Virus record (IMG/VR): IMGVR_UViG_3300021495_000001
Span: 1 to 64,000 of that record
DNA from: a virus
Length of the DNA: 64,000 nt
Direction: 5' to 3' (one strand)
Each line of letters starts with the position of its first letter. Within the stretch, counting starts at the first letter, position 1. A program made the position numbers and the translations under genes. The notes beneath the pieces were generated by a model. It saw nothing but the letters and a program-made list of their open reading frames with translations, searched no databases and was not told the DNA's origin. Below, one piece after another: positions 7,721 to 64,000 of the stretch.

Positions 7721-7908
7721 TTTTGAACCTCCTTACCATATATTTTTCTGAATAATTTAACCATTCTATTTTTTATCTTTTTATTTGAGCCAGCATAAAG
7801 CAAGTCTTCCACCTCTATAACCACTATCTCTGTCTCTCTTAACTGAAGCATATTATACTTAATTCTAATCCACCACTCATCAGCATGTCTTTCTACTTTC
7901 CATCTCAC
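7717..7908 (-). CDS. Hypothetical small protein
   Basis: 63-aa ORF with 4-nt overlaps to both flanking genes. Confidence 0.35.
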   Translation of the reverse strand: MRWKVERHADEWWIRIKYNMLQLRETEIVVIEVEDLLYAGSNKKIKNRMVKLFRKIYGKEVQK

Positions 7909-16588: not shown

Positions 16589-19500
16589 TTACAATTTCTC
16601 CCCAAAATCTTTCATAGTCCCATCAGCCCTAAACATCCGCATATCATCAACCACTGACAAGACATCATCTATCCCCCTAAGAATCCACTCCCTCTCATCT
16701 GCATACTTACCAGTTATCCCAGACAATAGATTTCTATGTACTATTACTTCCTCTCTAGCAAACCTCCTTCGTACAGTCACTCCATCCTCTCCAGCACCAA
16801 AAAAATCTGCCACCTTCAACTTATCTGTATACCCAGCCAAACTATTATCCACCATCCTATACTTCAGCCTCTTCCTCCCCTCTTTTAGCACAGCTTTTCT
16901 TATTCTCTTTCCCTTCCCTCCATCTGTACCACGGTATAGTATTATCTCGCCTTGGTTGATTACTTCCATGTAAGCTTGATTGAGTGCACGTAGGCGTAGA
17001 TAGTCATCCACCGTAAGTATTTCGTCTATAATTCGCAACATCTCCCTTCTAGAAATATCAGAGGGATAAATCACACGGGGAAGTCCCTTCTCCAGCGAGA
17101 ATGCCCTCATCCGAAGAGCTGTCCCATAAGTACTCAATGAATCAGCCTGCCACTTCCGCATTACCCTTTCCATCCTGAGCAGTGATTCATCCTTATCAAT
17201 AAGCCTATCCAAAACCCTCTTCAATTTTCTCACTACTCTGGGACCTTCCTCCCCTGGCTTCACTCTCTGCCTAAATATATCTATATACCCCTGTTTATAC
17301 TGATAGTACTTCTCTGCATTTGCCTCATCACGAAACAGCCTAGCTACTGGGTCACTCTTCCACCCCTGTGTGCTAGGCCCCCCCACTCTACCCCCAAACT
17401 CTTCTGGTATCAATGCCAGCAACTCATCCTTTTCCTGCCTAGTAATAGGGGTAAAGGGATGAGTCATCATGTCATCCCTAGTCACAGGAATTAGCAATGA
17501 ACGGCAATTGTGAACTACTACCCCATTAGCCACATAGCTCTCATCTCCCCCCACACTCAGGTTATATAACCGCCGGTGGTACTTCATCTGGGTAACCCCT
17601 ACGGCTATTACTGTTGCTGACACAAACCCACCATCCCTCCACACTGTCACCCTATCACCCACTTCTAGCCTCTTCACCGGCACCCAACCAGGGGTAGCCA
17701 GCACTGGGTGGTCTGGGGTAACTGGGGGTAGGGTTATAGTATCCTCACCAATGCCTAGCATTACCTTATACACTGGCCCCTTATAAGTGGTGGGGGACTG
17801 GCGGTGGTGGACAAAAGTAACAGGCATATACCTGCCCAAATGAGTCAATACTTTATCCCCTACCTTTATGTCCTTAATTGGCTTATATCCTTTATCCGTC
17901 AGCACAGGGGTTTTAGGGGAGAGAAAGCAGTTGTGGTGCAGTGGAGGGATAAACCTCTCCATGTCTGGGTCATTCTTAGGTATCACTTTCCCATCAGCCT
18001 TCCTGCATATTTCAGTTGTCCTGCTGTCCAGTATAGCTGAGAACTCCATTGCAGGGACATAATCCCCAGCCTGTTGCATCATGGACACTCGCCCATGGTT
18101 ATACGCTGCTGTGGTACTCGTCCGTACCAACGTTTCAATCCTATACGGTGCAGCAGCCCCTGGCACCAACACTGTCTTATCGCCTACATATGGTTGGTAG
18201 GTCTGTTGGATCTTTTGTATGGTTTCTTTTAGTGGTACGCCTTTTTTAAGGGATTCCATCAGGATGTTTTGCACTTTAAAACGGAGCTGGGAATTGAGTA
18301 TTTCCTTTGTCTGTATACCTTTGCTTTTCAGCCATTCCAATGCCGCTGTAGGGGCAAATGGGTTGAGTCGCTTGTAGTGCTTCTTCCCTATCTCCCTCTC
18401 CGCTTCTTTCCTTCCCTCGTAAAAAGCCAGACGGAGCATCTCAGTGATAGCCTCTTGCAACTTACCACCATACTTCAACTCCAGCTTTTGTATCAAGGTA
18501 GGATGCAACTCTCCCTTCTCCATTCTCTTACTCACAAAATCAATCAGCCAGTCCCTCTGTTGTTTTATTATCCCTGTTATCTTCTCCACGCTGTTCCTAT
18601 CCAACTGGTCAAGATACCTTTGTATCCGTTCAAACTGACATTTTCTCTCATATGGGCTAAGGGGGCGGAAGTAAGTAGTGTAAGACCTAAGTTGATATCC
18701 TCCCCCCTCTTCCTCCTCTCTTTCAGGCCAACCAAGGTGCTGCCGCAGCTTGTTTTCGTCTTTAAGTGTAGGTGCTATAACCCCCTTCTCCACTGCATCA
18801 ATAAACAACTTGGCCATAGCCTGTCGCTTCTCTTCATCCATTGGCCTAAACTTAAACTTGGGGTATTTATCCACTGCATAGTTAAAACTAACCAACTCCC
18901 TTATCAACTGCTCATTCAACACCTCTTCCAAGTCCCGCCTATGTTTGTCTACAATTTGGAGGAATACATCAAAATGAACTTTTCCCTGACTGTAGCTACC
19001 GTAATGTCCTTGCTCACTTACTCCTAACAAATTTGGTATTAACAAGCTACGTGCAATAGCCATGTCATGGACAGCAATGGCATCCTTATATGTGGATGCC
19101 CCCCGTCCACTCACCTCTGGAAAGTTCAACTCTACCCCATCAGGCAACACTATACTGGTTCTGGCTTGCAGGTTATCTAGGATATTTTTTAGAGTTGTCC
19201 TTTCATTCTTAGTCAAAGCCTTTTTCAACGTCCCCACTGCAGGTGGCATACTGTACCGCTCCAAGTAAATGTTATACAGCTTTATTATTACATCCTTGCT
19301 CCACCACGAGCGGTAGGCTTCCCGCAAATCACTTATGCCATACCAATTATCAAACTCTTTGCGGTATGTGTAGATAATAAACTTACTCGGAGGTAGCTTC
19401 CGTGTACCAAAGCCCTGCCACACTCCGTTCTCTCGTAAATTACCAAACTCATCCACATCAAAATCCACCCCATGAGGCTTCCTAGTCTTTATTGCCTTGA

Positions 19501-19936
19501 CCCCTACTTTTCCACCATAGGGGCCTGTATCTGGAAGCAAAGTATAGACCTTTTCACTTACACTAAACCCATAGTCAAACGCCGTCATAATGTTCAACAG
19601 CACATCTTCAAACGTCCCCTTTACCCTTTCTAAATTATGCTTCACAAACTCAGCTACTTCTATATCAGCCTCATCATCACTAGCTGGCTCCACTACCCAA
19701 CCTGAACACAGCACAGCAAACTTACGCAGGTTCATGCACCCCTTCACCGTGTCATCTCTGCGTATTTTGTCATATATCCTCAACCCACCTTTTCTACTTG
19801 CCAGTGTATCAGGGTTATATGGGGTAAAAAGAGCAGTAGGGTATAACAGGGTCTCCCTGCTCATCAACTCCTTATCAAGCTGAGCCCCTCTAGTATTGGT
19901 TTGGAATATCTTTTTAATATGGCTAAAAATAGACAT
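16589..19936 (-). CDS. Portal (Mu gp29/DUF935-like) - MuF/SPP1 gp7 head morphogenesis - ADP-ribosyltransferase fusion, interrupted by a mini-intein
   Basis: The N-terminal ~450 aa look portal-like by size and position next to the terminase. The MuF motif IPPLHHN/intein/CRSLLIPV matches PP.H.NCRC. The C-terminus has R-S-ExE ART motifs: ILYRGTDG, NSLAGYT, ADEREWILRG. Confidence 0.75.
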   Translation of the reverse strand: MSIFSHIKKIFQTNTRGAQLDKELMSRETLLYPTALFTPYNPDTLASRKGGLRIYDKIRRDDTVKGCMNLRKFAVLCSGWVVEPASDDEADIEVAEFVKHNLERVKGTFEDVLLNIMTAFDYGFSVSEKVYTLLPDTGPYGGKVGVKAIKTRKPHGVDFDVDEFGNLRENGVWQGFGTRKLPPSKFIIYTYRKEFDNWYGISDLREAYRSWWSKDVIIKLYNIYLERYSMPPAVGTLKKALTKNERTTLKNILDNLQARTSIVLPDGVELNFPEVSGRGASTYKDAIAVHDMAIARSLLIPNLLGVSEQGHYGSYSQGKVHFDVFLQIVDKHRRDLEEVLNEQLIRELVSFNYAVDKYPKFKFRPMDEEKRQAMAKLFIDAVEKGVIAPTLKDENKLRQHLGWPEREEEEGGGYQLRSYTTYFRPLSPYERKCQFERIQRYLDQLDRNSVEKITGIIKQQRDWLIDFVSKRMEKGELHPTLIQKLELKYGGKLQEAITEMLRLAFYEGRKEAEREIGKKHYKRLNPFAPTAALEWLKSKGIQTKEILNSQLRFKVQNILMESLKKGVPLKETIQKIQQTYQPYVGDKTVLVPGAAAPYRIETLVRTSTTAAYNHGRVSMMQQAGDYVPAMEFSAILDSRTTEICRKADGKVIPKNDPDMERFIPPLHHNCFLSPKTPVLTDKGYKPIKDIKVGDKVLTHLGRYMPVTFVHHRQSPTTYKGPVYKVMLGIGEDTITLPPVTPDHPVLATPGWVPVKRLEVGDRVTVWRDGGFVSATVIAVGVTQMKYHRRLYNLSVGGDESYVANGVVVHNCRSLLIPVTRDDMMTHPFTPITRQEKDELLALIPEEFGGRVGGPSTQGWKSDPVARLFRDEANAEKYYQYKQGYIDIFRQRVKPGEEGPRVVRKLKRVLDRLIDKDESLLRMERVMRKWQADSLSTYGTALRMRAFSLEKGLPRVIYPSDISRREMLRIIDEILTVDDYLRLRALNQAYMEVINQGEIILYRGTDGGKGKRIRKAVLKEGRKRLKYRMVDNSLAGYTDKLKVADFFGAGEDGVTVRRRFAREEVIVHRNLLSGITGKYADEREWILRGIDDVLSVVDDMRMFRADGTMKDFGEKL
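17507..17929 (-). mobile_element. Mini-intein (141 aa, no endonuclease domain) in the MuF domain
   Basis: Starts CFLSPKTPVLTDKGY (Cys codon 17929-17927). Block B is VTPDHPVLA. Ends YVANGVVVHN (Asn codon 17509-17507) followed by +1 Cys. Removing it restores the conserved HHN-CRS MuF motif. Confidence 0.85.
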
Positions 19937-24395: not shown

Positions 24396-26006
24396 CTAAT
24401 ATTCCTCCTCTCCATCAGGCCACCAATTACTCACCCTCTTCCCCCTCTCACTCATTACTATCTGCTCCAACCCCACCCCCTTAGCCAATGCATTAAATGC
24501 CCCTGCTGCTGCATCTACCTGGTCTTTGTATGTCCCATGGGGGAAAAACCGATGCTCCTCTATAAACTCCTCGTTCCATCCCCCCTGTAACAATACTACA
24601 TTCCCTGCATTCACCTGCACGCTATACGGGTCAGCCCTGTATACCTTGTTTCCAGTGGGTCGGTCTATCTCAACATGAAACCCAGCAAGATTTCTCACCG
24701 TCCCCTCAGCGCTCTCCTTTCCCCCACTCCCCGGCTCCTGCTCCACATACACCACACACCCACTACCATCCACCTCAGCCACCTCCCTGATTATCCTCTC
24801 CCTCTCATCACTACTCCACCTCCCCCGCCTAACATCCAATACCATAAACTTCCCATTATTCAACTTACACATCTTTACCCCCACCGTATATGCCCCACCA
24901 CCCTCTGTCCCTGCCTTATCCCAGTACCTCACTGTTTCTACTATGTCTATAGGCAAGGGTAGCTGGGTAGCTATTTGGAAATGCTCCACTTTGAACATCC
25001 CCCCGCCGGGTGGTACAGGGTGCTGTCCTACCTGCCCCGCATAACCATACTGGCCTAGCTCTGCCTGCATATCCTCTAGCACCTTCCACGGCATCCGTAC
25101 TGGGTCCAGCAAGCCATTCACATAGTACCGGCACAGCTCTGGTGGTTGTAGTTGCTCTCGGTAGTTCTGTATCTCCCCCGGCAAACATATCAGCCTCACC
25201 CCCTTCCAGCTCCGTAGTATATGTCCTGAGGGGTCATTTTGGTGGAGGCGTTGCATAATGAGTATCACCGGGGTCACTTCCTTGTCTGCCTTCCGTGTTG
25301 ATAGCGTCTGGTCTATCCACCGGTTTGCACTTTGCAGTTCCTTCTCACTCACTGCCCTATTTGGGTCTACTGGGTCATCCACTATCAATATATGTCCATG
25401 AAACCCAGTCAGTGTGCCCCCTACAGATGTGGAGTACCGGTTACCGCCTGGCCTTACTACTTCTCCTTTACTGTGGCGGACTATACGGAAATTGCTTTTA
25501 GTATCCTTGTCTTTTTTTACACTTAGGTGGGGAAAAAGAGCCTTAAACCTATCACTACGGACTATATCACGGCTTTTCTCTGCATGCTCCAAAGCCAATG
25601 CACCGCTATAACTGGCAACTATAAAGCACATCCAATACCAATTTACCCAACACCAGACTGGAAGCATTACACTGCATACGGTTGATTTTGTGGTTCCTGG
25701 GGGGATATTTATTACTAGGTCATACTGTTTGGGCTCTCGGTTAGCCACCTGTCTGGCCATCCTTGCAAGTTCACTGCATAGGTATTTTATATGCCAGTTC
25801 CACACTGGGGGGTCGTTGCTCACTACTGGCCAAAAGTATTGTAGAAAATAGAAGAAATCCCGCCGACATAGTTCTGCCCGCAGTTCATTCCTCATACCGT
25901 AGAGTTTATAAGCTTGTTGAAACTGTTGTTTTCGTTCTTCATAGTGTTTCTTTCGGATAAACCCCAGACGGCTACTCTTGCTTATCTTTCCCATCAGCCT
26001 GCTCAA
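24396..26006 (-). CDS. terL: Terminase large subunit
   Basis: Walker A-like INIPPGTTKST and Walker B HILIVDDP. The C-terminal nuclease region VEQEPGSGGKESAEG...YRADPYSVQVNAGNVVLL..GWNEEFIEEHRFFP.GTYKDQVDAAAGAFN is typical of Terminase_6-type TerL. Confidence 0.85.
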   Translation of the reverse strand: MSRLMGKISKSSRLGFIRKKHYEERKQQFQQAYKLYGMRNELRAELCRRDFFYFLQYFWPVVSNDPPVWNWHIKYLCSELARMARQVANREPKQYDLVINIPPGTTKSTVCSVMLPVWCWVNWYWMCFIVASYSGALALEHAEKSRDIVRSDRFKALFPHLSVKKDKDTKSNFRIVRHSKGEVVRPGGNRYSTSVGGTLTGFHGHILIVDDPVDPNRAVSEKELQSANRWIDQTLSTRKADKEVTPVILIMQRLHQNDPSGHILRSWKGVRLICLPGEIQNYREQLQPPELCRYYVNGLLDPVRMPWKVLEDMQAELGQYGYAGQVGQHPVPPGGGMFKVEHFQIATQLPLPIDIVETVRYWDKAGTEGGGAYTVGVKMCKLNNGKFMVLDVRRGRWSSDERERIIREVAEVDGSGCVVYVEQEPGSGGKESAEGTVRNLAGFHVEIDRPTGNKVYRADPYSVQVNAGNVVLLQGGWNEEFIEEHRFFPHGTYKDQVDAAAGAFNALAKGVGLEQIVMSERGKRVSNWWPDGEEEY

Positions 26007-32099: not shown

Positions 32100-32609
32100 A
32101 TGATAGAAAGTTACCAAAACATGTTGAGAAAATTAGCATGGAGCTTTTCCCACACCACTGGGCAACCTTTTGAAGACCTATTATCAGTGGGTTATCTAGC
32201 TTACCTCACTGCAAAAGAGAAATACCAACGTGGAAATGGGGCTCAGTTTGGAACATACCTGTATGCAGTGGTAAAGAATGCATTGATTGATTTTTGTAAA
32301 GCTGAACAGGACGAGGCGACCAGCCTTGAACAATTCAACCCAGCCTTGCTAGTCTCTCCTCTACCTACTCCAGAAGAAAGACTACTATTCACTACCACCA
32401 TAAACCAGCTAAGCACAGAAGCAAAAATGGTATGCAAAATGATATTCTCCACCCCACACGAGTATGCAATGGCAATAGAGACCCCCAAAAAAGCCAAGAC
32501 AAAGCTCAAAAAACGACTAAGACAACTGGGGTGGACGTATGCAAAAATACAAAAAACCATGGCCGAAATAACAGCTACAGTAAGGGAGGAAGGGGCATGG
32601 AACGAATAA
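32100..32609 (+). CDS. Sigma-70-like factor (region 2 plus divergent region 4)
   Basis: FEDLLSVGYLAYLTAKEKYQRGNGAQFGTYLYAVVKNALIDFCKAE matches sigma region 2.1-2.4. The C-terminus KKRLRQLGWTYAKIQKTMAEI is HTH-like. Confidence 0.55.
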   Translation: MIESYQNMLRKLAWSFSHTTGQPFEDLLSVGYLAYLTAKEKYQRGNGAQFGTYLYAVVKNALIDFCKAEQDEATSLEQFNPALLVSPLPTPEERLLFTTTINQLSTEAKMVCKMIFSTPHEYAMAIETPKKAKTKLKKRLRQLGWTYAKIQKTMAEITATVREEGAWNE

Positions 32610-32836
32610 GAAAGAATAGAAGAGAAAGAAAATATACACTAGGGGGATTTGTCCCTGACCCACCCCCAAACTGCAAATCACCCTCTATCATTGAAATGCC
32701 AGATGGTTCCAAATGGGTTGATGCAGTCCTATGTGCTACTTTCTGCCATCCAAACTATTGTCAAGTAGCTAAAACATATTTCAAAAAATTAAAAGCACAG
32801 AGGAGGAAAAACAAAAATGATATGCAGTCTATGTAA
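32597..32836 (+). CDS. Hypothetical basic Cys-containing protein
   Basis: Start is set at MERIRKNRRE after gggaggaagggGC. The ORF-track version (32432) overlaps the sigma gene. Confidence 0.4.
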   Translation: MERIRKNRRERKYTLGGFVPDPPPNCKSPSIIEMPDGSKWVDAVLCATFCHPNYCQVAKTYFKKLKAQRRKNKNDMQSM

Positions 32837-33239
32837 AAAAAGAACGAATGCCACATTCTATGTCAATGGACGGGACCTATGTAAAGAGTGCTATGCTGTC
32901 TGGAAGGAAGATTACCATGTCTGCAAAATCTGTGGGAAACTAGAACCTGCTACATATGTCACTGAAGTAAAGGAAAAGCTTAGAAAAGAACAAATTTGTT
33001 TTGAATGTTGGCATTGGCTATGCCTCATCAAAAGAGCAAATGACCCCAGAAGCGTGAGAATCAAACATCACCACTACTGGATAGGTAACGGGAAAGGGTC
33101 TTTCAAAGGATTTGGAGGGCGACATTTCAAAATAAAAATTTTTAATGGGAAAATTATAGAAACAAATGACTTATGGTATCAAGGGGAAATACCTGAAAGG
33201 TTCTGGGAAGAGTTGCCTGATAATGCAGAGTTTATCTAG
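32817..33239 (+). CDS. Zinc-ribbon protein
   Basis: CSLCKK...CKECY...CKICG...CFECWHWLC in the N-terminal half. Conserved-looking C-terminus KGFGGRHFKIKIFNGKIIETNDLWYQGEIPERF. Confidence 0.5.
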   Translation: MICSLCKKRTNATFYVNGRDLCKECYAVWKEDYHVCKICGKLEPATYVTEVKEKLRKEQICFECWHWLCLIKRANDPRSVRIKHHHYWIGNGKGSFKGFGGRHFKIKIFNGKIIETNDLWYQGEIPERFWEELPDNAEFI

Positions 33240-33248
33240 GGTGGAAGG

Positions 33249-34172
33249 ATGACGGCACTTGAACAACTACTACAAGACTACCATGTTCCTTTCCAAACCA
33301 CTGGACACAAACACTGCAGGCCAGGGTGGGCAAACATGCCATGCCCTTTTTGCACAGGTAACCCTGGTCTGCATTTAGGGGTGCATCTAAGTACCAACAC
33401 ATGGACATGTTGGCGGTGCGGTCCTAAACCCCGCTGGGTAGCCCTAGCAAAAGTGCTTGGGGTAGACTCCCAAGAGGCAAAAAAGCTCTTCAAACAGTAC
33501 CAAAAACAATATGGATGTGGATACCCATCCCCCCAAAATACAAACAAGCTAATCAAGATTAGACCTACCAAACTACCCTCTGACTGTGGACAGTTGATGT
33601 ATCATCACAAGCAATACTTGATACAGCGGGGGTTTGATCCTGAGAAGATAGAGAGGGAGTGGGGGGTGAAAGGGGCTGGTCCTGCTGCCATGCTAGATAA
33701 GGTAGAGTACAAAAACCGCATAATCATCCCTATATACTGGGATAACAGGCTAGTGTCTTTCCAAGGCCGTACAATCAGAGAGGGGGTAGAACCAAAATAC
33801 AAAGCCTGCCCAAAAACCCGTGAAGCCATCCCCCACCAGACCATTCTCTATGGAAAACAAGAGGCATGGAGCAGTGGGGCGGGGATATGTGTAGAGGGGG
33901 TAATGGATGTATGGAGGTTGGGGAAAGAGGCTTTTGCTGTGTTTGGGATATCATATACTAAAAAACAAATCAGGTGGATAGCAAAACTTTTCAAGCGAGT
34001 TTTCATTGTTTTTGATGATGACCCACAAGCACAACGACAGGCACAAAAGCTGGTAGGAGAGTTGGCTTTCAGGGGGGTGGAGGTAGAAAACGTAGAAATA
34101 GAAGGAGACCCAGGGGGAATGAAGCAAGAGGAGGCAAGATATTTAGTAAAAAATTTATTAAGGAAATGGTGA
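33249..34172 (+). CDS. DNA primase (zinc finger plus TOPRIM)
   Basis: Zinc finger CPFCTGNPGLHLGV...WTCWRCG. TOPRIM: ICVEGVMDVWRL and VFIVFDDDPQAQRQAQK. Confidence 0.65.
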   Translation: MTALEQLLQDYHVPFQTTGHKHCRPGWANMPCPFCTGNPGLHLGVHLSTNTWTCWRCGPKPRWVALAKVLGVDSQEAKKLFKQYQKQYGCGYPSPQNTNKLIKIRPTKLPSDCGQLMYHHKQYLIQRGFDPEKIEREWGVKGAGPAAMLDKVEYKNRIIIPIYWDNRLVSFQGRTIREGVEPKYKACPKTREAIPHQTILYGKQEAWSSGAGICVEGVMDVWRLGKEAFAVFGISYTKKQIRWIAKLFKRVFIVFDDDPQAQRQAQKLVGELAFRGVEVENVEIEGDPGGMKQEEARYLVKNLLRKW

Positions 34173-34197
34173 AAAGTGAGTATAATAATATAGAGGA
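34157..34197 (+). promoter_or_regulatory. Conserved phage promoter element, copy 1
   Basis: ATTAAGGAAATGGTGAAAAGTGAGTATAATAATATAGAGG: TTAAGG at 34158-63, 17-nt spacer, TATAAT at 34181-86. It overlaps the primase stop. Confidence 0.55.
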
Positions 34198-34205
34198 GGT
34201 AAATA

Positions 34206-34382
34206 ATGGGAAGAAAAAGATTGATGGAAATCAGCAGAATGGTGACCTTTCTGTTAGATGACAAAACCTACAAACAGGTCTCCACCTATTCAAGAAGACA
34301 TAAAAAAGGCTTTTCTGCCACCTTACGTTTCCTGTTACAGAGGGGGCTAGAGGCAGAGAGAAATAAGAAAGTGGGGAAATAA
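34206..34382 (+). CDS. Small basic protein (58 aa), possible RHH/DNA-binding
   Basis: Manual reading: first ORF after promoter copy 1, product MGRKRLMEISRMVTFLLDDKTYKQVSTYSRRHKKGFSATLRFLLQRGLE. Confidence 0.4.
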   Translation: MGRKRLMEISRMVTFLLDDKTYKQVSTYSRRHKKGFSATLRFLLQRGLEAERNKKVGK

Positions 34383-34392
34383 GGGGGGCAAA

Positions 34393-35271
34393 ATGAAAAA
34401 AGAAATTAGACTAGCAGTAAGGGGGCTTTATGATTTACAAAAAATAAGGATACAAATAGGAAACAGATTACACAATCACTATCTAAACAAGCTTGGTGTT
34501 AAGCCTAGTGAAGAAAAAGATAAAACAATAGGGTGGCTAACAGAACGCCTAAAAGAGGAGCACAAAAGGATTGTTGATGGAATGCTACATGAAAAAAACT
34601 TAATCAAAAACTTAAGTAGAATTCTAGGCACAGAAAAAGGGCTTATCTCAACTGAAACAGAATTTGCTCTCTCCTCAGCATACCTGCACCTGTGTGAAGA
34701 TGAAGAAAGACAAATCAAATTTCTTAAAAAACTCCTTGAAGACATCCCCATCTACAACAGCTTCCTAAAAGAAGTCAAAGGAGTTGGCCCCCAAATGGCA
34801 GGGGTAATAATCTCTGAGTTTGACATTACCAAAGCAAAATACGTAAGTAGTCTCTGGAAATATGCTGGGTTGGATGTTGTAGTGACTGCTGATGGTGAAG
34901 TGATGGGGAGGAGAATGAGCAAGAAATGTTGTAAAGTAATTGAATATATTGCTAAAAATGGAGAAAAGAAAGAAAGGTTATCACTAACTTACAATCCATT
35001 TCTGAAAAGCAAACTACTAGGCGTCCTCGCTAAATCATTCATTAAGCTGAAAAGTCCTTACCGCAAATTTTATGATGATTATAAACATAGGTTACAAAAC
35101 CACCCAAAGCACAAAAACAAAAGTAAAGGGCATATAGACAACATGGCAAAGCGGTATATGATAAAAATGTTCCTAATTGACCTGTATGTGAAGTGGAGAA
35201 AATTATCAGGTTTGTCTGTACACCCCAGTTATGCTGAAGGAAAACTTGAAATTAAACACAAAGCAGGTTAA
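34393..35271 (+). CDS. Protein with IS110-family transposase C-terminal (HhH, Transposase_20-like) domain only
   Basis: LKEVKGVGPQMAGVIISEFDITKAKYVSSLWKYAGLDVV...YNPFLKSKLLGVLAKSFIK...MAKRYMIKMFLIDLYVKW matches the IS110 C-domain pattern. The N-terminal 130 aa are coiled-coil-like with no DEDD/RuvC-like motif. Confidence 0.5.
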   Translation: MKKEIRLAVRGLYDLQKIRIQIGNRLHNHYLNKLGVKPSEEKDKTIGWLTERLKEEHKRIVDGMLHEKNLIKNLSRILGTEKGLISTETEFALSSAYLHLCEDEERQIKFLKKLLEDIPIYNSFLKEVKGVGPQMAGVIISEFDITKAKYVSSLWKYAGLDVVVTADGEVMGRRMSKKCCKVIEYIAKNGEKKERLSLTYNPFLKSKLLGVLAKSFIKLKSPYRKFYDDYKHRLQNHPKHKNKSKGHIDNMAKRYMIKMFLIDLYVKWRKLSGLSVHPSYAEGKLEIKHKAG

Positions 35272-35276
35272 AAATG

Positions 35277-35580
35277 GATAAGCCAGCGCGGACTAGAAAA
35301 CCATTAATACAAAGCGAACCAATAGCAAGAAGACAACCATTAGTTAATAGTGAGTCACACATCCGAAGAAAACCAATCAAGGGGAGCGAGCCAAAAATAG
35401 CGAGACAACCAATAAAACTGAGTGAACCATAGGGCAGAAGAAAACCATGGATAAAAAGCGTGCCACTGTAATGAAGAAAACCATGGATTATGAGCGAGCC
35501 AAATGGAGAGAGATAACCAAGCATGGAAAGCGGGCCAAACCTCTACAAATGGAGTAGAAAACCCTGATATGGGAAGCCCA
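35277..35580. repeat. Phased 18-nt / 36-nt tandem repeat array (candidate iterons / origin)
   Basis: 8-nt cores start at 35278, 35296, 35314 ... 35530 at exactly 18-nt spacing (15 units). They alternate GAAAACCA/GACAACCA/GATAACCA with GCGAGCCA/GTGAACCA/GCGTGCCA. Two degenerate units follow. No plus-strand ORF spans the array. Confidence 0.8.
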
Positions 35581-35620
35581 GATATGGATATCCAAAATAA
35601 GGGCAGGAAAGGAGTAAGAC

Positions 35621-36832
35621 ATGAGAAGTGAACTGAAAAACAAGATAAAAGACAACTACACAATCATCCCTAATGCACTCATAACTGACCCCTCTCTCAA
35701 TCCAACAGCGAAATACCTGTATGCACTACTAGCAAGTAAACCTGATGAATGGCAGTTCTATAACAATGCACTCGCCAGTGAAATGGGGTGTACCACTGAT
35801 ACCTTACGAAAACACCTAAAAATGCTTGAAGACAGTGGGTGGATAGAAATAAAAAAACAATCAGAATTACCAAGAGAAAAAGGTAGATTCCCACCGAACA
35901 AATACATACTAAAACACATAAAATCAACCGTATCGGAAAAATTCGGTATCGGAAAAAACACGCATCGGAAAAACCATGATACTTATAAAGAAGTACCTAA
36001 AGTAAGAAGTAATAATAGTAAGAAGAAAAGTATATTATTGTCTGAAAGTGAAAAAACTGGGTTTGGTTCCCCCAATACAGAACAAATTGGGGGCTCCTCC
36101 AATTTTGATAAAGAAGGGCTTCCCCCAGTGAAAGAAAGAACAAAATCTTTCCTTCCATTTGCTAAACAACTCGCTTCCATCATCAGAACAAAAAAGAGAG
36201 TTAAAATCCCCCCCACCCGCCTCCACAGTTGGGCAACAGAGTTTCGTAAACTAGTAAAGGTAGAAGGGGTAGATAGAGAGCGTGTCCAAAGAGTTTTGGA
36301 TTGGTATGGAGGGAGTATTGGTGGACAATATGTCCCAGTTGTAGAAAGTGGGGCGAGTTTCCGCCATAAGTTTCTTCGTCTAGAAGCAGCAATGGAAAGG
36401 GAACAAGGTCAAGGGGGTTATGAGAGAGAAAACAAACCCTCCACCACTGCTAGTCTGAGTGAGATTTTAGACCGACTAGGTAAGCCCAAAACACACTGCC
36501 GTAGAGCCTTCCCCAAAGAGTGTCTTGCCCCAGCACGGGAGATACTGGGTGATGGGGTGAGGAGGGTAGAGGTGGCTGAGCAGTTGGTGAGGATGATTGA
36601 GGAGATTGGTGAGAGACAAAAGGGGGTAGAGGAAAAAGTATATGAGCTTCTGCCCAGTCCTTTTAGTTTAGTGTGCCAGTATGTGAGGTGGTTAGGGGGG
36701 CAGGAGTGGGTGGAACATCCCACTTTGCAGATGTTCTCTATCCATCACAAACTGTTTCAGCATTTTTGTAAACAACAAGCAAAAAACAATTTAGACCTTC
36801 ACCCAGTGACAGGGAGGAAGGTGGGGAGGTAG
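35621..36832 (+). CDS. Replication initiator / organizer with N-terminal winged-helix domain
   Basis: YTIIPNALITDPSLNPTAKYLYALLASKPDEWQFYNNALASEMGCTTDTLRKHLKMLEDSGWIEIKK is a typical phage Rep/DnaD-type wHTH. It lies directly downstream of the repeat array and upstream of the helicase. Confidence 0.55.
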   Translation: MRSELKNKIKDNYTIIPNALITDPSLNPTAKYLYALLASKPDEWQFYNNALASEMGCTTDTLRKHLKMLEDSGWIEIKKQSELPREKGRFPPNKYILKHIKSTVSEKFGIGKNTHRKNHDTYKEVPKVRSNNSKKKSILLSESEKTGFGSPNTEQIGGSSNFDKEGLPPVKERTKSFLPFAKQLASIIRTKKRVKIPPTRLHSWATEFRKLVKVEGVDRERVQRVLDWYGGSIGGQYVPVVESGASFRHKFLRLEAAMEREQGQGGYERENKPSTTASLSEILDRLGKPKTHCRRAFPKECLAPAREILGDGVRRVEVAEQLVRMIEEIGERQKGVEEKVYELLPSPFSLVCQYVRWLGGQEWVEHPTLQMFSIHHKLFQHFCKQQAKNNLDLHPVTGRKVGR

Positions 36833-58981: not shown

Positions 58982-59501
58982 GTATCATGGAAAGGAACTT
59001 AGATTATTTATCTCAAATAAAGAAGGCAAAGAATTATTTGAATGGGCTGATAAACTTAGCCCTACTCTTGCTGAAAAAGTTAAAAGTGCAGTTGCCCGTG
59101 CTTTATCTGGATGCTCTAATGGGTCTTTCCTTTGGAATGTTTTTTATTATTACCAGTGTGATGCTGAAAGAGTAAGGGAAGGATTAAGGGAACAATACAA
59201 AGAAAAAGGCACAATAGAAATGGGGAAGCGATGGGGATTTGATTATCATACAATACAAGAAGGACTTAAAGAATTAGGCATTGAAATTAAACCCAGAATA
59301 TACAACAACGCACCATATGGATTAGCAAGCGAGGCATTTGAGAAATATGGTGGGATAGAAGCAGTTTTGAAACAATATAGTGTAACAAAATTCAGTAAAA
59401 TTTGTAAACTCTCCGTTTCTTGTTTATTACAATATTTAAATAAACAGGGGTATTATTATGATAGAGAAGAGAGAAGATGGAAAATTAAATCTAATAAATA
59501 A
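58974..59501 (+). CDS. Hypothetical protein
   Basis: 175-aa ORF. Confidence 0.45.
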   Translation: MSKYHGKELRLFISNKEGKELFEWADKLSPTLAEKVKSAVARALSGCSNGSFLWNVFYYYQCDAERVREGLREQYKEKGTIEMGKRWGFDYHTIQEGLKELGIEIKPRIYNNAPYGLASEAFEKYGGIEAVLKQYSVTKFSKICKLSVSCLLQYLNKQGYYYDREERRWKIKSNK

Positions 59502-59997
59502 TCTCATTAGTGATGATTTTCTTAATTATGGTGCAGCAGTCTTTGCCCAGATAAAGATTGCAGAGGAAGTTATAGGTAAATATAAAGAAGATTATCCTCT
59601 TGTAGATAAGTGTTTTTTAGCTTTTCGTACAAGGCTCATTGAACCTGATTTTGCACCTTGGATTTTCCGTTCTCACTGCAAAGAGATTGCAGACAGACTG
59701 AAAAAAGTTGGAAAAAGGTGGAGTAAAAAGCAAATCTTTGGCCTAATGCAACCACCCACAAAAGCAGAGATTGTGTGCGCTCTTTCAAAGGCCAGTATGC
59801 TTGCACCATTGAGACGGGATGGAGCAGCATTGGCATTACACTATTTTAATGAGATTGCTAAAGAGGAAGGAAAGGAATTTAAGATTGAATATGTCCCAAT
59901 ATCTGATTTAGAACTGAAACAAGCAGAGGAAGAAATTGTCCATCATTTAAGCAAACTTGGTGAGGGAAGGGCTAAGATAGTTTGGGAGAGATTTTAG
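59458..59997 (+). CDS. Hypothetical protein
   Basis: 179-aa ORF. Confidence 0.45.
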   Translation: MIEKREDGKLNLINNLISDDFLNYGAAVFAQIKIAEEVIGKYKEDYPLVDKCFLAFRTRLIEPDFAPWIFRSHCKEIADRLKKVGKRWSKKQIFGLMQPPTKAEIVCALSKASMLAPLRRDGAALALHYFNEIAKEEGKEFKIEYVPISDLELKQAEEEIVHHLSKLGEGRAKIVWERF

Positions 59998-60006
59998 GAG
60001 GTAGAA

Positions 60007-60627
60007 ATGGAAAAACATGACAAAGAGTATTTGGAGATGTGCCAAAAAGCAGGGGAGATACAGAAAATCTGGAAACCTAGAGCCGGAGATTGGGTTATAG
60101 ACATCCAGAATGATAGTATATGTATAATCTGTTTAGTAAGGGGGGACAATCCTGATTATTTTTACCTTGTTGGTACTGACGCTGATAACCCAAACGATTT
60201 TTATCAACATTATATCTCAAAAGTTTATTGGCTCCCAACTCAAAGCCAATTACAAGAAATGTTAGGGATAGCTGATGATATAAAACCTGCCTTATTGGAG
60301 GAGATTACCCAGCTTAGGTATAAATATAATTATGAGAGTAGTAGTGGAGACGTCAGTCTGAATGGAGAAAAGTTGTGGTTAGTGTTTTATATGTGGAAGA
60401 AACATAGAAAATTATGGAATGTAGAAAAACAATGTTGGGAAAGGGAGATGTTCGATGAGGCTTTGAAGGAGAAAATTAGAAATGCTTTGTCTTATTGGGA
60501 TGAGGATGAGAGCTTACTTTTGAATGATGGCGTGGAGGCAGTCATAAATGTTTTCAAAGAATGGATAAAAGAGAATAGGGGGGTGATTTTAAAGTGGCTA
60601 GATGAAAGGAGACTAACCGATGGCTAA
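60007..60627 (+). CDS. Hypothetical protein
   Basis: 206-aa ORF with RBS taggaggtagaa ATG. Confidence 0.5.
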   Translation: MEKHDKEYLEMCQKAGEIQKIWKPRAGDWVIDIQNDSICIICLVRGDNPDYFYLVGTDADNPNDFYQHYISKVYWLPTQSQLQEMLGIADDIKPALLEEITQLRYKYNYESSSGDVSLNGEKLWLVFYMWKKHRKLWNVEKQCWEREMFDEALKEKIRNALSYWDEDESLLLNDGVEAVINVFKEWIKENRGVILKWLDERRLTDG

Positions 60628-60784
60628 AAGAAAGAGAAAAGCTAGAGAAATAAGATATTATTATACAGGGGAAGATGAGCATAAAGTTTATCGTGATCGT
60701 GCAATTATAAATGCACTTGGAAAGGCTCTTAAAGAGTGGGTGAGGGAAAGTAAAAAAGGCAGTAAAGGGGAGGATAGTAAATGA
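60620..60784 (+). CDS. Small basic protein (54 aa)
   Basis: Manual reading: MAKRKRKAREIRYYYTGEDEHKVYRDRAIINALGKAL... ATGA coupling to the next ORF. Confidence 0.35.
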   Translation: MAKRKRKAREIRYYYTGEDEHKVYRDRAIINALGKALKEWVRESKKGSKGEDSK

Positions 60785-61068
60785 ATACACTTTGTCTTTT
60801 TAAAGTAACAGTTAAGGGGTTTTGTGGTAAGCGATACAAAACTGTGTATGTAATATCTGATAATTTGGATGATGCTTATCAAACTTATAGGAATTTTTTG
60901 GATAATCAAGACTTGGGATTTGAACATGCAGGAGATAGGGAATTAGAGAAAATAGAGTTGGTAGCTAAACTTTACAAAGAAGCTGAAAGCGAATGTAAAA
61001 TGTTATTTATATCAAATAGAATTAGTGAAAAGTTATGTGAAAGGGGCAAACTATGGGAAACAAGGTAA
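60781..61068 (+). CDS. Hypothetical protein
   Basis: 95-aa ORF. Confidence 0.4.
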   Translation: MNTLCLFKVTVKGFCGKRYKTVYVISDNLDDAYQTYRNFLDNQDLGFEHAGDRELEKIELVAKLYKEAESECKMLFISNRISEKLCERGKLWETR

Positions 61069-61277
61069 ATCAGACAAAACCAGATAAAGAGTATTGGTTA
61101 ATGATTGCTGGCCAAGTTCATTCAATTATTGCCTTGGTTCGTAGCTCTATTAAATTGGAAGATGTAGAGAGATTAAACCGTTTCTTGATGACTTATGAGG
61201 CAATAGCTTTGTTTAAAGAGGAATATCCCAAATTGGTAACGAGAGTGCGAATAATAGAGAATGCATTTAAGTGGTAA
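61053..61277 (+). CDS. Hypothetical protein
   Basis: 74-aa ORF. Confidence 0.4.
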   Translation: MGNKVNQTKPDKEYWLMIAGQVHSIIALVRSSIKLEDVERLNRFLMTYEAIALFKEEYPKLVTRVRIIENAFKW

Positions 61278-61283
61278 AGGGCT

Positions 61284-61928
61284 ATGGGGGCGGATAAGGC
61301 TAAAGCTATAACCCTTTCTGAACTATGCACTCATATTTTCCCTCCTCCCAAGGGAAGAAAAGGAAAGGGGGTTTGTGTTTGGTGTGGGAAGGAAGTAGAT
61401 GAGATGTTTGATATCAAGGTTTCTGATAATTTTATGGGGTGGTGTTATTTTTCATTTGGGGATTGTATGTGTAGGTATTGTTATGCTTTTTTCTCTAAAC
61501 AGTCCTTCAGGAAAAAGAGTTGGGTGGCTACAAAGAGTGGAGTGAAATTCATAAAAAGAGATGAGATTATGGAGCTTCTCCTCCAACCACCAAAGCCCCC
61601 TTGGTTTCTATATATTACAAAAACAGGCCAAAAGCAGGGGTGGTTGCACTGTATTCATAAGGTGAACTTGTCTTCTTTCTCCTTCACAGTTGCCTTTGAG
61701 CCCTTTGATTTTCCAGTTCAGACAAACATCTCTGAGGTTCATGCTTTACATAATCTTCTATCTTTTCTGAGAGAGAGAAAAGTGACAAAAACAGAACTTT
61801 TAACTGGTGTGTTTAAGATGAAGACTTACGAGAGGGCAATAAAAGAGGGGTATGAAGAGGAGTTAAAAAGAGCTAAAAAATATGCAGGAAAAGGAATATG
61901 GGAGGTAATGTGTCATGTCATCAAATGA
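61284..61928 (+). CDS. Zinc-finger protein, candidate Csf1/Cas8-like large subunit of a type IV-like effector
   Basis: CVWCGKEVDE...CYFSFGDCMCRYCYAFF (CxxC...CxCxxC), then LLQPPKPPWFLYITKTGQKQGWLHCIHKV. It is the first gene of a coupled operon with RAMP genes. The call rests on motif-level recollection only. Confidence 0.4.
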   Translation: MGADKAKAITLSELCTHIFPPPKGRKGKGVCVWCGKEVDEMFDIKVSDNFMGWCYFSFGDCMCRYCYAFFSKQSFRKKSWVATKSGVKFIKRDEIMELLLQPPKPPWFLYITKTGQKQGWLHCIHKVNLSSFSFTVAFEPFDFPVQTNISEVHALHNLLSFLRERKVTKTELLTGVFKMKTYERAIKEGYEEELKRAKKYAGKGIWEVMCHVIK

Positions 61929-62322
61929 TAAAGAGAGTAAACTGGTTGTCTTTTTAGCACTTGTTTACATGCGTGTTCCATGGGGGAAGATGCAGATGGG
62001 GAAGAATGTTTGGGATGTGTTTAACCACCGTGTCCGTGCTGCATCTAGAAAAGGGACTATGCAAGCATTTGCAAGCAAGTTATGTAACTATTTTGGGATA
62101 CAGTCTCTGCCCCCAGAGGCTGTGCTCATTCTAGATGACCTTATCCCTGATCAAGAAAGAGTGCTAAACCTGCTATATATGGAACATATACCAATTTGCA
62201 TGAGAGCAGTAATAAAAGCAAAAGAGATTAGAGAAGCTAAAAAAGAGAAAGAGAAAGAGAAACAACAGAAAAAGGAGGAAAAGAATGGGGAAAAATTACA
62301 AAACGGTCTGTGGACTGTGTGA
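61915..62322 (+). CDS. Small helical protein, candidate Cas11-like small subunit
   Basis: 135 aa, helical-looking sequence with a K/E-rich tail. It sits between the putative large subunit and Cas7. The call is positional. Confidence 0.3.
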   Translation: MSSNDKESKLVVFLALVYMRVPWGKMQMGKNVWDVFNHRVRAASRKGTMQAFASKLCNYFGIQSLPPEAVLILDDLIPDQERVLNLLYMEHIPICMRAVIKAKEIREAKKEKEKEKQQKKEEKNGEKLQNGLWTV

Positions 62323-63118
62323 GGCAAAAACCCCGATTTTTCATGGAGGAAATGAAAAAACAGGGAGCACCCCTATCCTTCGCACCATTATGATTTGGCA
62401 TGAAGGGGGTGGGGTTAGCATCCCCTACATCCATGGGAATGCAGTGCGGGGAAAGCTGAGACGGATGATTATGAAAGATATGCTAGAGGTGGTTGGATAC
62501 TCTGTGACAAACAAAAAGTTGCACCACTCTCTGTTTTCTGGTGGAGTGTTAGAGGGAACTGAAAAAACAAGTGGAGTTCTAGATTTAACATTAAGGAAAG
62601 AAATTGTGGACATGCTCCCCCCTATTTCTCTATTTGGCTGTGGGATAGGAAACCAGTTGATACAAGGGAAGCTTGTGGTTGGACATATGTGGCCTATTTG
62701 CAAGGAGTATAAAGCCTTTCTTCCTACTAGCTTCCAAGGTGACCAGCGGGCGCAGCAGCCTGTTCGTGTCTTTACAGATGAGTCTTTTATCACTAGGAGG
62801 GATGATTTGCGAGAGGAGAGGGAAAAAGATAAGCAGGCTGTCCAGATGAAAGTAGATTATGAGTGCTTTATCCCTGGGACAGCCTTTTACCATGAGTTCA
62901 AACTCCTTTTTACAAACGCAGTGGAGGAAAGTTGCTTTTCACGCTTGCTATCCCTGTGGAAAATGTATCCAAACGTTGGTGGCCGTGGGAGTTCAGGTGA
63001 TGGGTTGTTAATTTTAAACTATGACTGGGAAGGCAAAGATGATGTATATATGGAACATTTAAGCACAAAGGCCAAAGAGATTGCATCCTTGTTAAAAAAA
63101 CTGGAGGAAATGTTGTGA
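62285..63118 (+). CDS. RAMP protein, Cas7 (Csf2/Csm3-like) backbone subunit candidate
   Basis: TPIFHGGNEKTG, IPYIHGNAVRGKLRRMI, HHSLFSGGVLEG, ISLFGCGIG and the glycine loop NVGGRGSSGDG. Strong RBS aggaggaaaaga ATG. Confidence 0.55.
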   Translation: MGKNYKTVCGLCEAKTPIFHGGNEKTGSTPILRTIMIWHEGGGVSIPYIHGNAVRGKLRRMIMKDMLEVVGYSVTNKKLHHSLFSGGVLEGTEKTSGVLDLTLRKEIVDMLPPISLFGCGIGNQLIQGKLVVGHMWPICKEYKAFLPTSFQGDQRAQQPVRVFTDESFITRRDDLREEREKDKQAVQMKVDYECFIPGTAFYHEFKLLFTNAVEESCFSRLLSLWKMYPNVGGRGSSGDGLLILNYDWEGKDDVYMEHLSTKAKEIASLLKKLEEML

Positions 63119-63909
63119 TGATCCCCGTCTTATATGAAAAGCAAAGAGAGGAGATAGAGTATTTTGTTTCAAAGATAGAAAGGCAGAAACAGAAACAAAG
63201 GTTAAATAGATTTACCAATTTTAAAATCACTTTTACTCTCTCTTCTCCAATCTGCATCACCACCCCATGGCTTAATTTTGACAGCCTTATAGGGCATCTT
63301 ATGACTATGGAGAGTTTGGATAGGGAGTATTTTGTTACGGATAAAAAAATTAACTTAGCAAAATATATGTCAGGTGGGGGGTTACCGTATGGGTCTTTAT
63401 GGCATGAAGAAGAAGGGCTGGCTGTTCCAACAGTGAGTGTTGGATATTCAGAAGAACCTTTTGAACCTCGTGTAGAGGTTTTGTATAAGCGGTTTGAGGG
63501 GTATCATGCATCATTCAAAGGAAAGATAAGGGTTGGCTCTGGACATTTCCGTAACTTTATGATTCGTCATATTTATATCCCCATAAAAAAGGTTATTTTC
63601 TTTGTGAAAGGGGATAAAGAGTTTATCTACAACTTACTAAAGAGAAATCTATTTGCCCTTGGCAATGATGTTCGTGTAGGTTATGGGTTTATAAAAAATA
63701 TGTCAGTCAGAGATATGGAGAAGGATTACTCTATTGTGATGAATGGAAAAGCTATGCGTCCGCTCCCTGTGGAATTCTGCAAGAGTTATGAAGAAGTGGC
63801 CCCTCTTCCATACAAACCACCGTATTGGGAGAAAAGAAATGTGCGGATGTGTGTACCCCCTTTTACTAGGTGTGAGTTGAAAGAAAAGTGGAGGAAGTAT
63901 TACGGGTGA
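63115..63909 (+). CDS. RAMP-like protein, Cas5 (Csf3-like) candidate
   Basis: FKITFTLSSPICITTPWLNFDSLIGHLM (first strand plus helix as in Cas5/Csf3) and the glycine loop ALGNDVRVGYGFI. ATGA coupling to the Cas7-like gene. Confidence 0.4.
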   Translation: MMIPVLYEKQREEIEYFVSKIERQKQKQRLNRFTNFKITFTLSSPICITTPWLNFDSLIGHLMTMESLDREYFVTDKKINLAKYMSGGGLPYGSLWHEEEGLAVPTVSVGYSEEPFEPRVEVLYKRFEGYHASFKGKIRVGSGHFRNFMIRHIYIPIKKVIFFVKGDKEFIYNLLKRNLFALGNDVRVGYGFIKNMSVRDMEKDYSIVMNGKAMRPLPVEFCKSYEEVAPLPYKPPYWEKRNVRMCVPPFTRCELKEKWRKYYG

Positions 63910-64000
63910 TTAAGATTGAGGTTGCTTACCACCGTATGAACTCTGATGGAAACTTGACAAGATGCTACCGTACAATTTGGTCTCTTTGTGGTGCAACAAC
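63906..64000 (+). CDS. 5' end of a further coupled gene (GTG start, runs off the right edge)
   Basis: GTGA overlap with the upstream stop. The frame is open to the window end: (M)IKIEVAYHRMNSDGNLTRCYRTIWSLCGAT. Confidence 0.35.
   Translation, partial: MIKIEVAYHRMNSDGNLTRCYRTIWSLCGAT

Follow-up and report, generated by a model that had tools for sequence, protein, structure and literature searches.

A predicted array-less type IV-B CRISPR-Cas operon with an adjoining TrmL-like SPOUT gene in a tailed-phage genome

The IMG/VR virus record IMGVR_UViG_3300021495_000001 was analysed over its positions 1 to 64,000 (the window, 64 kb in total), at the end of which lies an operon that is almost certainly, judging from its gene content, a complete and array-less type IV-B CRISPR-Cas (short palindromic repeats, clustered and regularly interspaced, with their associated proteins) locus. 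The gene order, read across the window and two overlapping public contigs, is csf1-cas11-csf2-csf3, followed by a gene for a TrmL-like protein with a predicted SPOUT fold and then by a cysH-like gene. The best explanation of the locus as a whole, held with a probability of roughly 0.7, is a type IV-B phage module whose accessory enzymes would modify RNA held by the Csf proteins. Co-inheritance of the SPOUT gene with its own subclade of CysH-like proteins is the new point, as far as the searched literature shows.

Gene content of the csf operon

An earlier sequence-only reading of the window had described four overlapping open reading frames (ORFs) as a type IV-B-like operon, and all four are present with the coordinates and sizes listed in Table 1. 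The overlaps of 14, 38 and 4 nt that it gave between successive csf1, cas11, csf2 and csf3 ORFs are right, as is the presence of a fifth ORF that begins at GTG 63906 and overlaps the csf3 stop codon, and every peptide motif that it quoted is found in the translations. Csf1 features CVWCGKE and CMCRYC (an N-terminal CxxC...CxCxxC arrangement resembling a zinc finger) together with PPKPPWFLYITKTGQKQGW, Csf2 features TPIFHGGNEKTG, IPYIHGNAVRGKLRR, SLFSGG, SLFGCG and VGGRGSSGDG, and Csf3 features FTLSSPICITTPWLNFDSLIGHL and GNDVRVGYGF. All four reading frames are intact, with translational coupling between them. Two public contigs encode exactly the same Csf2, namely L001 (ENA ERZ27247988, 12,069 bp, 99.2% identical to window positions 59243-64000) and L002 (Logan SRR7051275, 100% identical to window positions 59847-64000). 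Gene callers on these contigs place the csf3 start at ATG 63118, giving 263 aa, and agree with the window ORFs for the other operon genes.

The decisive profiles are the type IV-specific CRISPRCasTyper models in PADLOC, which bear out the proposed Csf1/Cas8-like, Cas11-like, Cas7 and Cas5 assignments with E-values of 1e-34 to 1e-71. Csf1 matches Csf1_0_IV (3.7e-39, residues 11-213) as well as NCBIfam TIGR03114 cas8u_csf1 (8.6e-11, under its cut-off), and the identical protein on L001 and L002 carries a precomputed match to Pfam PF27781 Csf1. Cas11 matches Cas11_0_IV (2.2e-34) and Cas11_1_IV (5.3e-08), exhibits 44-61% identity across 29 viral relatives, and gave no match in Pfam, NCBIfam or the PDB sequences. 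The backbone protein Csf2 matches typeIV_Cas7 (1.1e-71) and Csf2_0_IV (6.2e-67), with weak PADLOC matches to Csm3 and Cmr4 profiles, a weak match to Pfam RAMPs (repeat-associated mysterious proteins; 0.045) and a sub-threshold Csf2 match in NCBIfam. Csf3 matches Csf3_0_IV (2.5e-44) and NCBIfam TIGR03116 cas5_csf3 (5.3e-17, under its cut-off), and the identical gene on L001 and L002 has a precomputed Pfam PF27782 Csf3 match. RAMP profile matches were therefore obtained and no unrelated phage family was the best match; the PHROGs search of the four proteins returned two families with no known function.

A search of PDB sequences with Csf2 identified 11fs_C, deposited as 'Cas7c' (1.2e-15), the type IV-A Csf2 of 8rc2 (2.9e-07) and the type IV-B Csf2 of 7jhy (9.8e-07), the last being the sole IV-B structure. 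The same search gave nothing meaningful for Csf1 and Cas11, and only a match of 0.03 for Csf3. The 330-aa chain 11fs_C (also 11hc and 11hd) is the nearest solved relative of Csf2, far nearer than 7jhy. The Cas7 had been called unusually compact, a description that does not hold, as its size is normal for its clade. The 280-position type IV Cas7 profile is matched over positions 6-279, and the 29 viral relatives, when on complete contigs, align over about 246-277 of the 277 residues, which makes their Csf2 proteins similar in length. Within the conserved loop HGG[D/N/S]EKTGS, window positions 62351-62356 encode residues N23-E24 of Csf2; the first is Asp in 20 of the 29 clade relatives and Asn in the window, and the Glu that follows is invariant. 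A putative catalytic Asp of IV-B Csf2 has been placed in an N-terminal loop (PMC7937560), and N23 might correspond to it.

The sequence-only reading had suggested looking past position 64000 for a cysH-like gene, and on L001 and L002 this gene is found two genes after csf3. Its 242-aa product matches Pfam PAPS_reduct (1.3e-14), contains the PP-loop SGGKDS at residue 43 and has no Cys within its last 60 residues; weak matches to DndC (6e-06) and BrxP (8e-05) were also found. SGGKDS is invariant in 28/28 CysH-like sequences examined, among which no C-terminal Cys is conserved. A retained PP-loop with loss of the catalytic Cys separates the CasCysH of IV-B from true CysH and DndC (PMC8175902). 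The cysH-like gene is followed by a gene for a 201-aa protein with a weak AAA_28 match, two small ORFs, an Amidase_3 endolysin gene (3.9e-45) and then genes on the opposite strand. The AAA_28-like gene was considered as a part of the system and rejected, since it is confined to L001 and is not conserved.

The statement that no CRISPR array is present held in every test run over the 64 kb: no repeat unit of more than 16 nt was reported by Tandem Repeats Finder for the window, no CRISPR-like spaced direct repeats were found in it, and Rfam gave no match to it at gathering score. The 7 kb past the window end on L001 also contains no array, L001 having been searched for spaced repeats and with Rfam. 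The related statement that cas1, cas2, cas3, cas6 and cas10 are missing stands for Cas6 and for the ORFs that were scanned, which are part of those in the window. The Cas6 of a relative gave no match in tblastn against the window, and PADLOC and/or Pfam gave no Cas match for 12 larger ORFs lying at 30-55 kb in the plus-strand arm. The genes from csf1 through the endolysin gene, all scanned, include no DinG, RecD or HD-Cas10. Helicases among the window ORFs tested are an SNF2-type protein (with ZorD/DpdE-like matches) and a DnaB-like protein, both 22-31 kb upstream in the replication module. No tRNA was identified in a scan of the window, and a promoter and terminator scan of L001 gave fewer sites than in shuffles.

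The presence of csf1, cas11, csf2, csf3 and a cysH-like gene together with the lack of DinG, RecD, HD-Cas10, Cas6 and array agrees with every gene-content criterion for type IV-B (PMC7038947, PMC8175902), as the sequence-only reading had proposed. The subtype call rests on this gene content, as the best profiles are pan-type-IV or were labelled 'CAS-IV-A' by their authors. Type IV-C, suggested by the name Cas7c of the best PDB match, was rejected since the large subunit is Csf1 instead of HD-Cas10 and a cysH-like gene is present. Types IV-A, IV-D and IV-E were rejected since neither DinG or RecD nor a Csf3-Csf1 fusion is present.

Relatives of Csf2 were found at 29 loci in IMG/VR (46-63% identity) and at 22 loci in GTDB genomes, belonging to Calditrichia, Chloroflexota, Bacillota (including the isolate Caldicoprobacter algeriensis TH7C1), Thermoanaerobacter, Ignavibacteria/Kapaibacterium, Methanobacteriaceae and several archaeal metagenome-assembled genomes. 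Nearly all relatives that extend far enough retain the order csf1-cas11-csf2-csf3 and then cysH-like; the loci number more than 50, span bacterial and archaeal elements and reach down to about 30-40% identity. The operon gave no blastn match among 50,697 deposited phage genomes, and Csf2 gave one weak match there, to Skermania phage SPI1; the window locus belongs to a large clade nearly absent from deposited phage genomes. The ratios of nonsynonymous to synonymous substitution rates (dN/dS) are 0.06 for Csf3 (against L037), 0.09 for the SPOUT protein and 0.10 for the CysH-like protein, and these three genes are under purifying selection. A decaying, non-functional CRISPR-Cas remnant that is passively carried by the phage would also have no array, adaptation genes or nuclease, but intact and coupled ORFs, dN/dS values this low, the widely kept gene order and 42 invariant Csf2 columns leave this explanation with a negligible probability.

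The TrmL-like SPOUT protein and its link to the CysH-like gene

TrmL, CspR and YibK are minimal SPOUT tRNA (C/U34) 2'-O-methyltransferases, and the product of the fifth gene is predicted to be a SPOUT-fold protein of this SpoU/TrmL type. The 150-aa protein matches Pfam SpoU_methylase (PF00588) with an E-value of 7.1e-05, and some of its relatives bear a precomputed match to the same family. A profile built from the protein and nine homologues identified TrmL (7e3t, 1.4e-04) among PDB sequences. The AlphaFold2 model has a mean predicted local distance difference test score (pLDDT) of 85.4 and a predicted template modelling score (pTM) of 0.84, and the best Foldseek matches of this model in the PDB are CspR, TrmL and YibK (8w9u, 5co4, 7e3t and 4jak; E about 2e-07, template modelling score 0.70-0.80, with 0.75-0.80 for TrmL/CspR). 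The top 50 PDB matches are all SPOUT methylases acting on tRNA or rRNA. The invariant residues N16, R22, T23, G103, E105 and N126 align with SpoU motifs 1-3 of TrmL 7e3t, and are presumed from TrmH and TrmL to have catalytic or S-adenosylmethionine (SAM)-site roles.

The SPOUT family is very small: a search of 5.8 billion proteins gave ten clusters, a search of 1.84 billion representatives gave six at E<=1e-10, and no member was found in 185,579 reference genomes. The gene is present in 16 loci of at least seven lineages (L001, L002, L032-L040, L064-L066). It adjoins the cysH-like gene in every copy with readable context and adjoins csf3 wherever the contig reaches that far; its usual position is between the two, and L033 and L034 have the order csf3-cysH-SPOUT. 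A hidden Markov model of the family identified no further copy in L003-L031, in L041-L063 or elsewhere in the window. No link of SPOUT, SpoU or TrmL proteins to type IV CRISPR systems was found in the searched literature.

The identities of the proteins to those of the window follow two different patterns. Relatives with no SPOUT gene share 46-63% identity in Csf2 and 33-40% in the CysH-like protein, whereas distant SPOUT-bearing loci share 39-41% in Csf2, 46-52% in the CysH-like protein and 47-51% in the SPOUT protein. For L064 and L065 these values are 46-47%, 64% and 66-67%, respectively. Neighbour joining recovers the SPOUT-linked CysH-like proteins as a monophyletic group in 200/200 bootstraps. 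In the Csf2 tree, by the same method, the window lineage clusters with loci that have no SPOUT gene in 200/200 bootstraps, and a single SPOUT clade is recovered in 0/200. Because the CysH-like tree unites the SPOUT loci and the Csf2 tree disagrees, the SPOUT and cysH-like genes appear from their sequences to move as a cassette that is swapped between Csf backbones, as would be expected if both enzymes served one pathway. It is somewhat more probable than the contrary that the two proteins act jointly on one substrate.

Possible functions of the module

The role of the CysH-like protein alongside the Csf ribonucleoprotein is the field's stated key question (PMC7937560, PMC8175902), and type IV-B is among the CRISPR-Cas subtypes of unsolved function. 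In the published complex, Csf2 and Cas11 form a filament on heterogeneous RNA about 55-60 nt long, in which one base in every 6 nt is flipped (PMC7937560). By homology to this Mycobacterium complex, the Csf2 of the window would polymerise on RNA of roughly 55-60 nt with Cas11 as the minor filament, and Csf3 and Csf1 would cap the filament ends. By this analogy, the presence of an RNA-bound Csf filament is likely. The particle would bind RNA, and perhaps a complementary target too, but would be unable to cut it, since the locus has no nuclease, helicase, adaptation gene or array of its own.

Effector activity would then sit in the 3' accessory cassette. The CysH-like protein, as a PP-loop ATP pyrophosphatase, would adenylate its substrate, and the SPOUT protein would be, in this lineage, a SAM-dependent RNA 2'-O-methylase of the TrmL/CspR type. 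The Csf filament could serve as a platform that holds or marks RNA for chemical modification, every sixth nucleotide being flipped out and exposed in Cas7 filaments. The CysH-like enzyme might adenylate the bound or paired RNA and the TrmL-like enzyme might 2'-O-methylate it, which would either make the RNA resistant to host ribonucleases, because a 2'-O-methyl group blocks cleavage that needs the 2'-OH, or disable host guide RNAs. The benefit to the phage would likely be counter-defence or competition during infection. Since all proteins structurally related to the SPOUT model are RNA methylases, the association narrows the hypotheses towards RNA modification. That the two enzymes share as their substrate an RNA which the Csf complex holds or targets is nevertheless only a tentative proposal, and it is doubtful that IV-B Csf complexes in general are RNA-holding platforms for nucleic-acid-modifying enzymes and not interference machines.

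The same absence of array, nuclease and adaptation genes would suit a small-RNA sponge, in which a nuclease-free Csf filament soaks up host CRISPR RNAs (crRNAs) and other guide RNAs irrespective of their sequence and blunts RNA-guided host defences during phage replication, with the accessory enzymes being peripheral. This idea was raised in PMC7937560, PMC7038947 and PMC8175902, and it fits both the assembly of the published complex on heterogeneous RNA and the phage location among genes likely expressed in lytic growth. It leaves unexplained the near-universal CysH-like protein and the linked SPOUT protein, both under purifying selection. A stoichiometric sponge of four proteins would also be costly to the phage, and so complex an anti-CRISPR was judged unlikely in PMC7038947. 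The sponge is therefore regarded as unlikely here as well.

Other modifying enzymes occur at the same place in relatives. A methylase family marked by a (Y/C/T/S)DPPW motif and, at the C-terminus, by a GxG SAM motif is found at or near eight IV-B loci (Table 1); it is a beta-class, N6_N4-type methylase, and the L059 copy matches Pfam N6_N4_Mtase (1e-07). In four of the loci it lies between csf3 and cysH, in the slot taken by the SPOUT gene in the window lineage. Three relatives encode IbrA/IbrB-like pairs, consisting of a PAPS_reduct+DUF3440 protein and a ParB_N protein, between csf3 and the cysH-like gene, and the insert of L063 also includes a GNAT acetyltransferase. In L064, a 47-aa gene and a 242-aa gene with a faint DUF6009 match lie between csf2 and csf3 (L064:2768-3641), so that other operon junctions accept insertions too. 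The other methylases and the IbrA/IbrB-like pairs suggest a more cautious generalisation, namely that the csf3-cysH junction of IV-B loci collects nucleic-acid-modifying enzymes.

These accessory genes could also belong to a DNA-modification module, in which the CysH-like protein, as a DndC relative, and the methylases modify phage DNA against restriction and the Csf ribonucleoprotein recruits or regulates them. The weak DndC and BrxP matches of the CysH-like protein, the recurrent DPPW methylase and the IbrA/IbrB-like pairs all point this way. In the window, however, the accessory gene is a TrmL-type SPOUT gene whose structural matches act on tRNA or rRNA, the Cys needed for Dnd-type sulphur chemistry is missing (PMC8175902), and the Csf backbone binds RNA (PMC7937560), all of which make a DNA-directed role quite improbable.

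A Cas6 gene stands beside the cysH-like gene in several IV-B loci, with matches to Pfam Cas_Cas6_C (1.8e-32) and Cas6_I-A (1.6e-16). Cas6 has been recorded as rare in IV-B, with 12 instances (PMC7038947). No spaced repeats were found in the four of these loci that were searched (L032, L036, L039, L040) or in L033, and Tandem Repeats Finder on L032 and Rfam on all five except L036 were likewise negative. Loci of this kind might process host pre-crRNA. The module could thus load crRNAs from host arrays, with the help of a phage Cas6 in some relatives, and bind complementary DNA or RNA of competitors so that its expression is blocked as in type IV-A, which silences without cutting (PMC12669027). 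The module has the architecture of a class 1 effector that carries a guide (PMC7937560), and five array-less loci (L032, L036, L039, L040, L061) have Cas6 after the cysH-like gene and one (L056) before it. Silencing with scavenged guides is judged improbable for the window, as its lineage has no Cas6, neither the 64 kb nor the further 7 kb contains an array, a helicase partner is missing, and host spacers might equally aim the complex at the phage itself.

Several points weigh against the preferred explanation, modification of Csf-held RNA by the accessory enzymes. The PF00588 score of the SPOUT protein is 23.4 bits, under the gathering score of 29.7, and for this reason the protein is described as SPOUT-fold and TrmL-like and not as a TrmL orthologue. 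Its motif 3 reads 'VET...CLIN' instead of 'IPM...SLN', and because of this alteration SAM binding and catalysis are no more than putative. The SPOUT gene is present in 0/29 of the IMG/VR and 0/22 of the genome Csf2 relatives, and since most relatives do without it, it is an optional add-on and not part of the IV-B core. The trees are midpoint-rooted neighbour-joining trees built on modest alignments. No preference for particular RNA sequences was seen in the published IV-B complex, the study of which did not include CysH (PMC7937560), and the DPPW methylases and IbrA/IbrB-like plus ParB pairs of the relatives lean to DNA instead of RNA. The mechanistic steps are all inference.

The SPOUT gene is nonetheless a concrete, testable handle on IV-B function. 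If the Csf filament does act as a platform for RNA modification, this would be the first IV-B accessory gene with a fold for which an RNA-specific activity has been characterised biochemically, and the SPOUT-bearing variant would give a direct assay for the unsolved function. If the proposal of RNA modification is wrong, the locus is still correctly annotated, as an ordinary phage example of a known system.

Phage genome context and comparison with known systems

The window is a tailed-phage genome, and the phage setting that the sequence-only reading had assumed for the operon is borne out by the structural and replication genes identified in it (Table 1). The plus-strand arm encodes an SNF2 helicase, a protein with a DnaG-like region, a DnaD-like loader, a DnaB-like helicase, a DNA methylase, a DNA polymerase, a clamp-loader-like ATPase, a gp32-like single-stranded DNA-binding protein, a RecA-like protein, an SbcC-like ATPase and an Mre11-like phosphoesterase. 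The csf operon lies behind these replication and recombination genes, after a run of small unknown genes and ahead of the endolysin gene, with almost no intergenic space around it. Because of this head-to-tail packing between the replication/recombination genes and the endolysin gene, the operon is probably transcribed with the replication arm as part of a lytic-cycle transcription unit. Its G+C content (0.34-0.41) and strong coding-strand G>C skew match those of the preceding small genes, and since it shares these traits with its neighbours, the operon looks long-resident in the phage.

Table 1. Positions of the operon genes, of selected phage genes and of accessory genes in related loci. Positions without a locus name are those of the window or its extension.
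Feature	Position	Strand	Remarks
csf1, type IV large subunit (Cas8-like)	61284..61928	+	214 aa
cas11, type IV small subunit	61915..62322	+	135 aa, K/E-rich tail
csf2, type IV Cas7 backbone RAMP	62285..63118	+	277 aa
csf3, type IV Cas5	63115..63909	+	264 aa from GTG 63115
TrmL-like SPOUT gene, 5' end	63906..64000	+	31 codons; start GTG 63906
TrmL-like SPOUT gene, full	window-equivalent 63906-64358; L001:4664-5116, L002:4060-4512		150 aa
cysH-like gene	window-equivalent 64351-65079; L002:4505-5233, L001:5109-5837		242 aa
Large terminase	24396-26006	-	
Portal with head-morphogenesis domain	16589-19936	-	
Head protease	14381-16339	-	
DPPW methylase	L023:10148-10822, L048:5990-6496, L059:7321-7869, L061:6997-7674		exactly between csf3 and cysH-like
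DPPW methylase	L062:4818-5552, L044:10734-11453, L016:12751-13506, L017:7132-7887		nearby; L062 copy between csf1 and cas11
IbrA/IbrB-like pairs	L048:5355-5918 and 7300-8379; L053:3037-4765; L063:7561-8847 and 9466-9903		
Cas6	L032:9189-9902, L036:9177-9887, L039:4667-5380, L040:4011-4724, L061:8391-9101		right after cysH-like
Cas6	L056:2747-3403		before cysH-like

The GC skew of the window (1-64000) is very strong and follows the coding strand. It is about -0.3 to -0.4 in the minus-strand structural arm and reaches +0.2 to +0.37 in most of the plus-strand replication arm (about 36-64 kb), with weaker values of +0.05 to +0.14 at 26-36 kb; its sign switches at the divergent junction near 26 kb. 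Three 29-nt direct repeats with 36-nt spacing (GAAGAAAACCATGGAT...GCGTGCCA) lie at 35437-35537, just upstream of the DnaD-like replication-initiator gene (35621-36832), and are candidate iterons or origin elements. In the structural arm, a 1347-aa ORF (8365-12408, minus strand) has glycosyltransferase-like regions at residues 221-359 and 633-718, and its residues 935-1172 match the large subunit of anaerobic ribonucleotide reductase, an odd mix for a gene of the virion arm.

The SPOUT protein shares with TrmL, CspR and YibK a length of about 150 aa, the predicted fold and, in the alignments, the Asn and Arg conserved in motif 1, the Gly/Glu in motif 2 and the Asn in motif 3. It differs from them in an identity of only 11-22%, in the altered motif 3 and in being found only inside IV-B loci. 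The Cas7 and Cas5 RAMP proteins of type IV-A (with DinG) and of type III-A Csm are related to those of the window, and the filament architecture is common to all (PMC7937560). Unlike type IV-A the window has no DinG, Cas6/Csf5 or array, and unlike type III it has no Cas10, cyclase or HD domain.

Type IV-B loci have been recorded on plasmids, in prophages, in some lytic phages and in an archaeal virus (PMC7038947, PMC10848311). As phage-borne IV-B is already described in this literature, the core operon is of a known kind and less novel than the sequence-only reading had implied. The IV-B system of the Mycobacterium sp. JS623 plasmid (PDB 7JHY; PMC7937560, PMC7038947, PMC8175902) has the five genes csf1, cas11, csf2, csf3 and cysH-like in the same order. 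Both loci are on mobile elements, both are without array, Cas6, helicase, nuclease and adaptation genes, and both encode a CysH-like protein with the PP-loop SGGxDS and no catalytic Cys. The JS623 locus is on an actinobacterial megaplasmid whereas that of the window is in a tailed-phage genome, the two Csf2 proteins are only distantly related (phmmer 9.8e-07), and the window has the additional TrmL-like SPOUT gene between csf3 and the cysH-like gene. The 'Fuxiviridae' of Bathyarchaeia (PMC10848311) encode a viral cluster of the same five genes, but with a mini-array, an archaeal host and a CysH-like gene adjoining csf3, no methylase being reported.

The same five-gene cluster is also encoded in the genome of Skermania phage SPI1 (L041, KR011061.1, record positions 32609-36242, Orf40-44), where all five products are annotated 'hypothetical protein'. 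Profile matches were obtained for its Csf1 (1.9e-28), Cas11 (5.9e-15), Cas7 (1.2e-66) and Cas5 (2.1e-36), and Orf44 is a CysH-like protein with SGGKDS. The SPI1 Csf2 is 339 aa long and shares 32% identity with the window Csf2 over half its length, and unlike in the window there is no gene between csf3 and the cysH-like gene. SPI1 is a cultured wastewater actinophage, and its IV-B operon is a possible experimental system for IV-B function.

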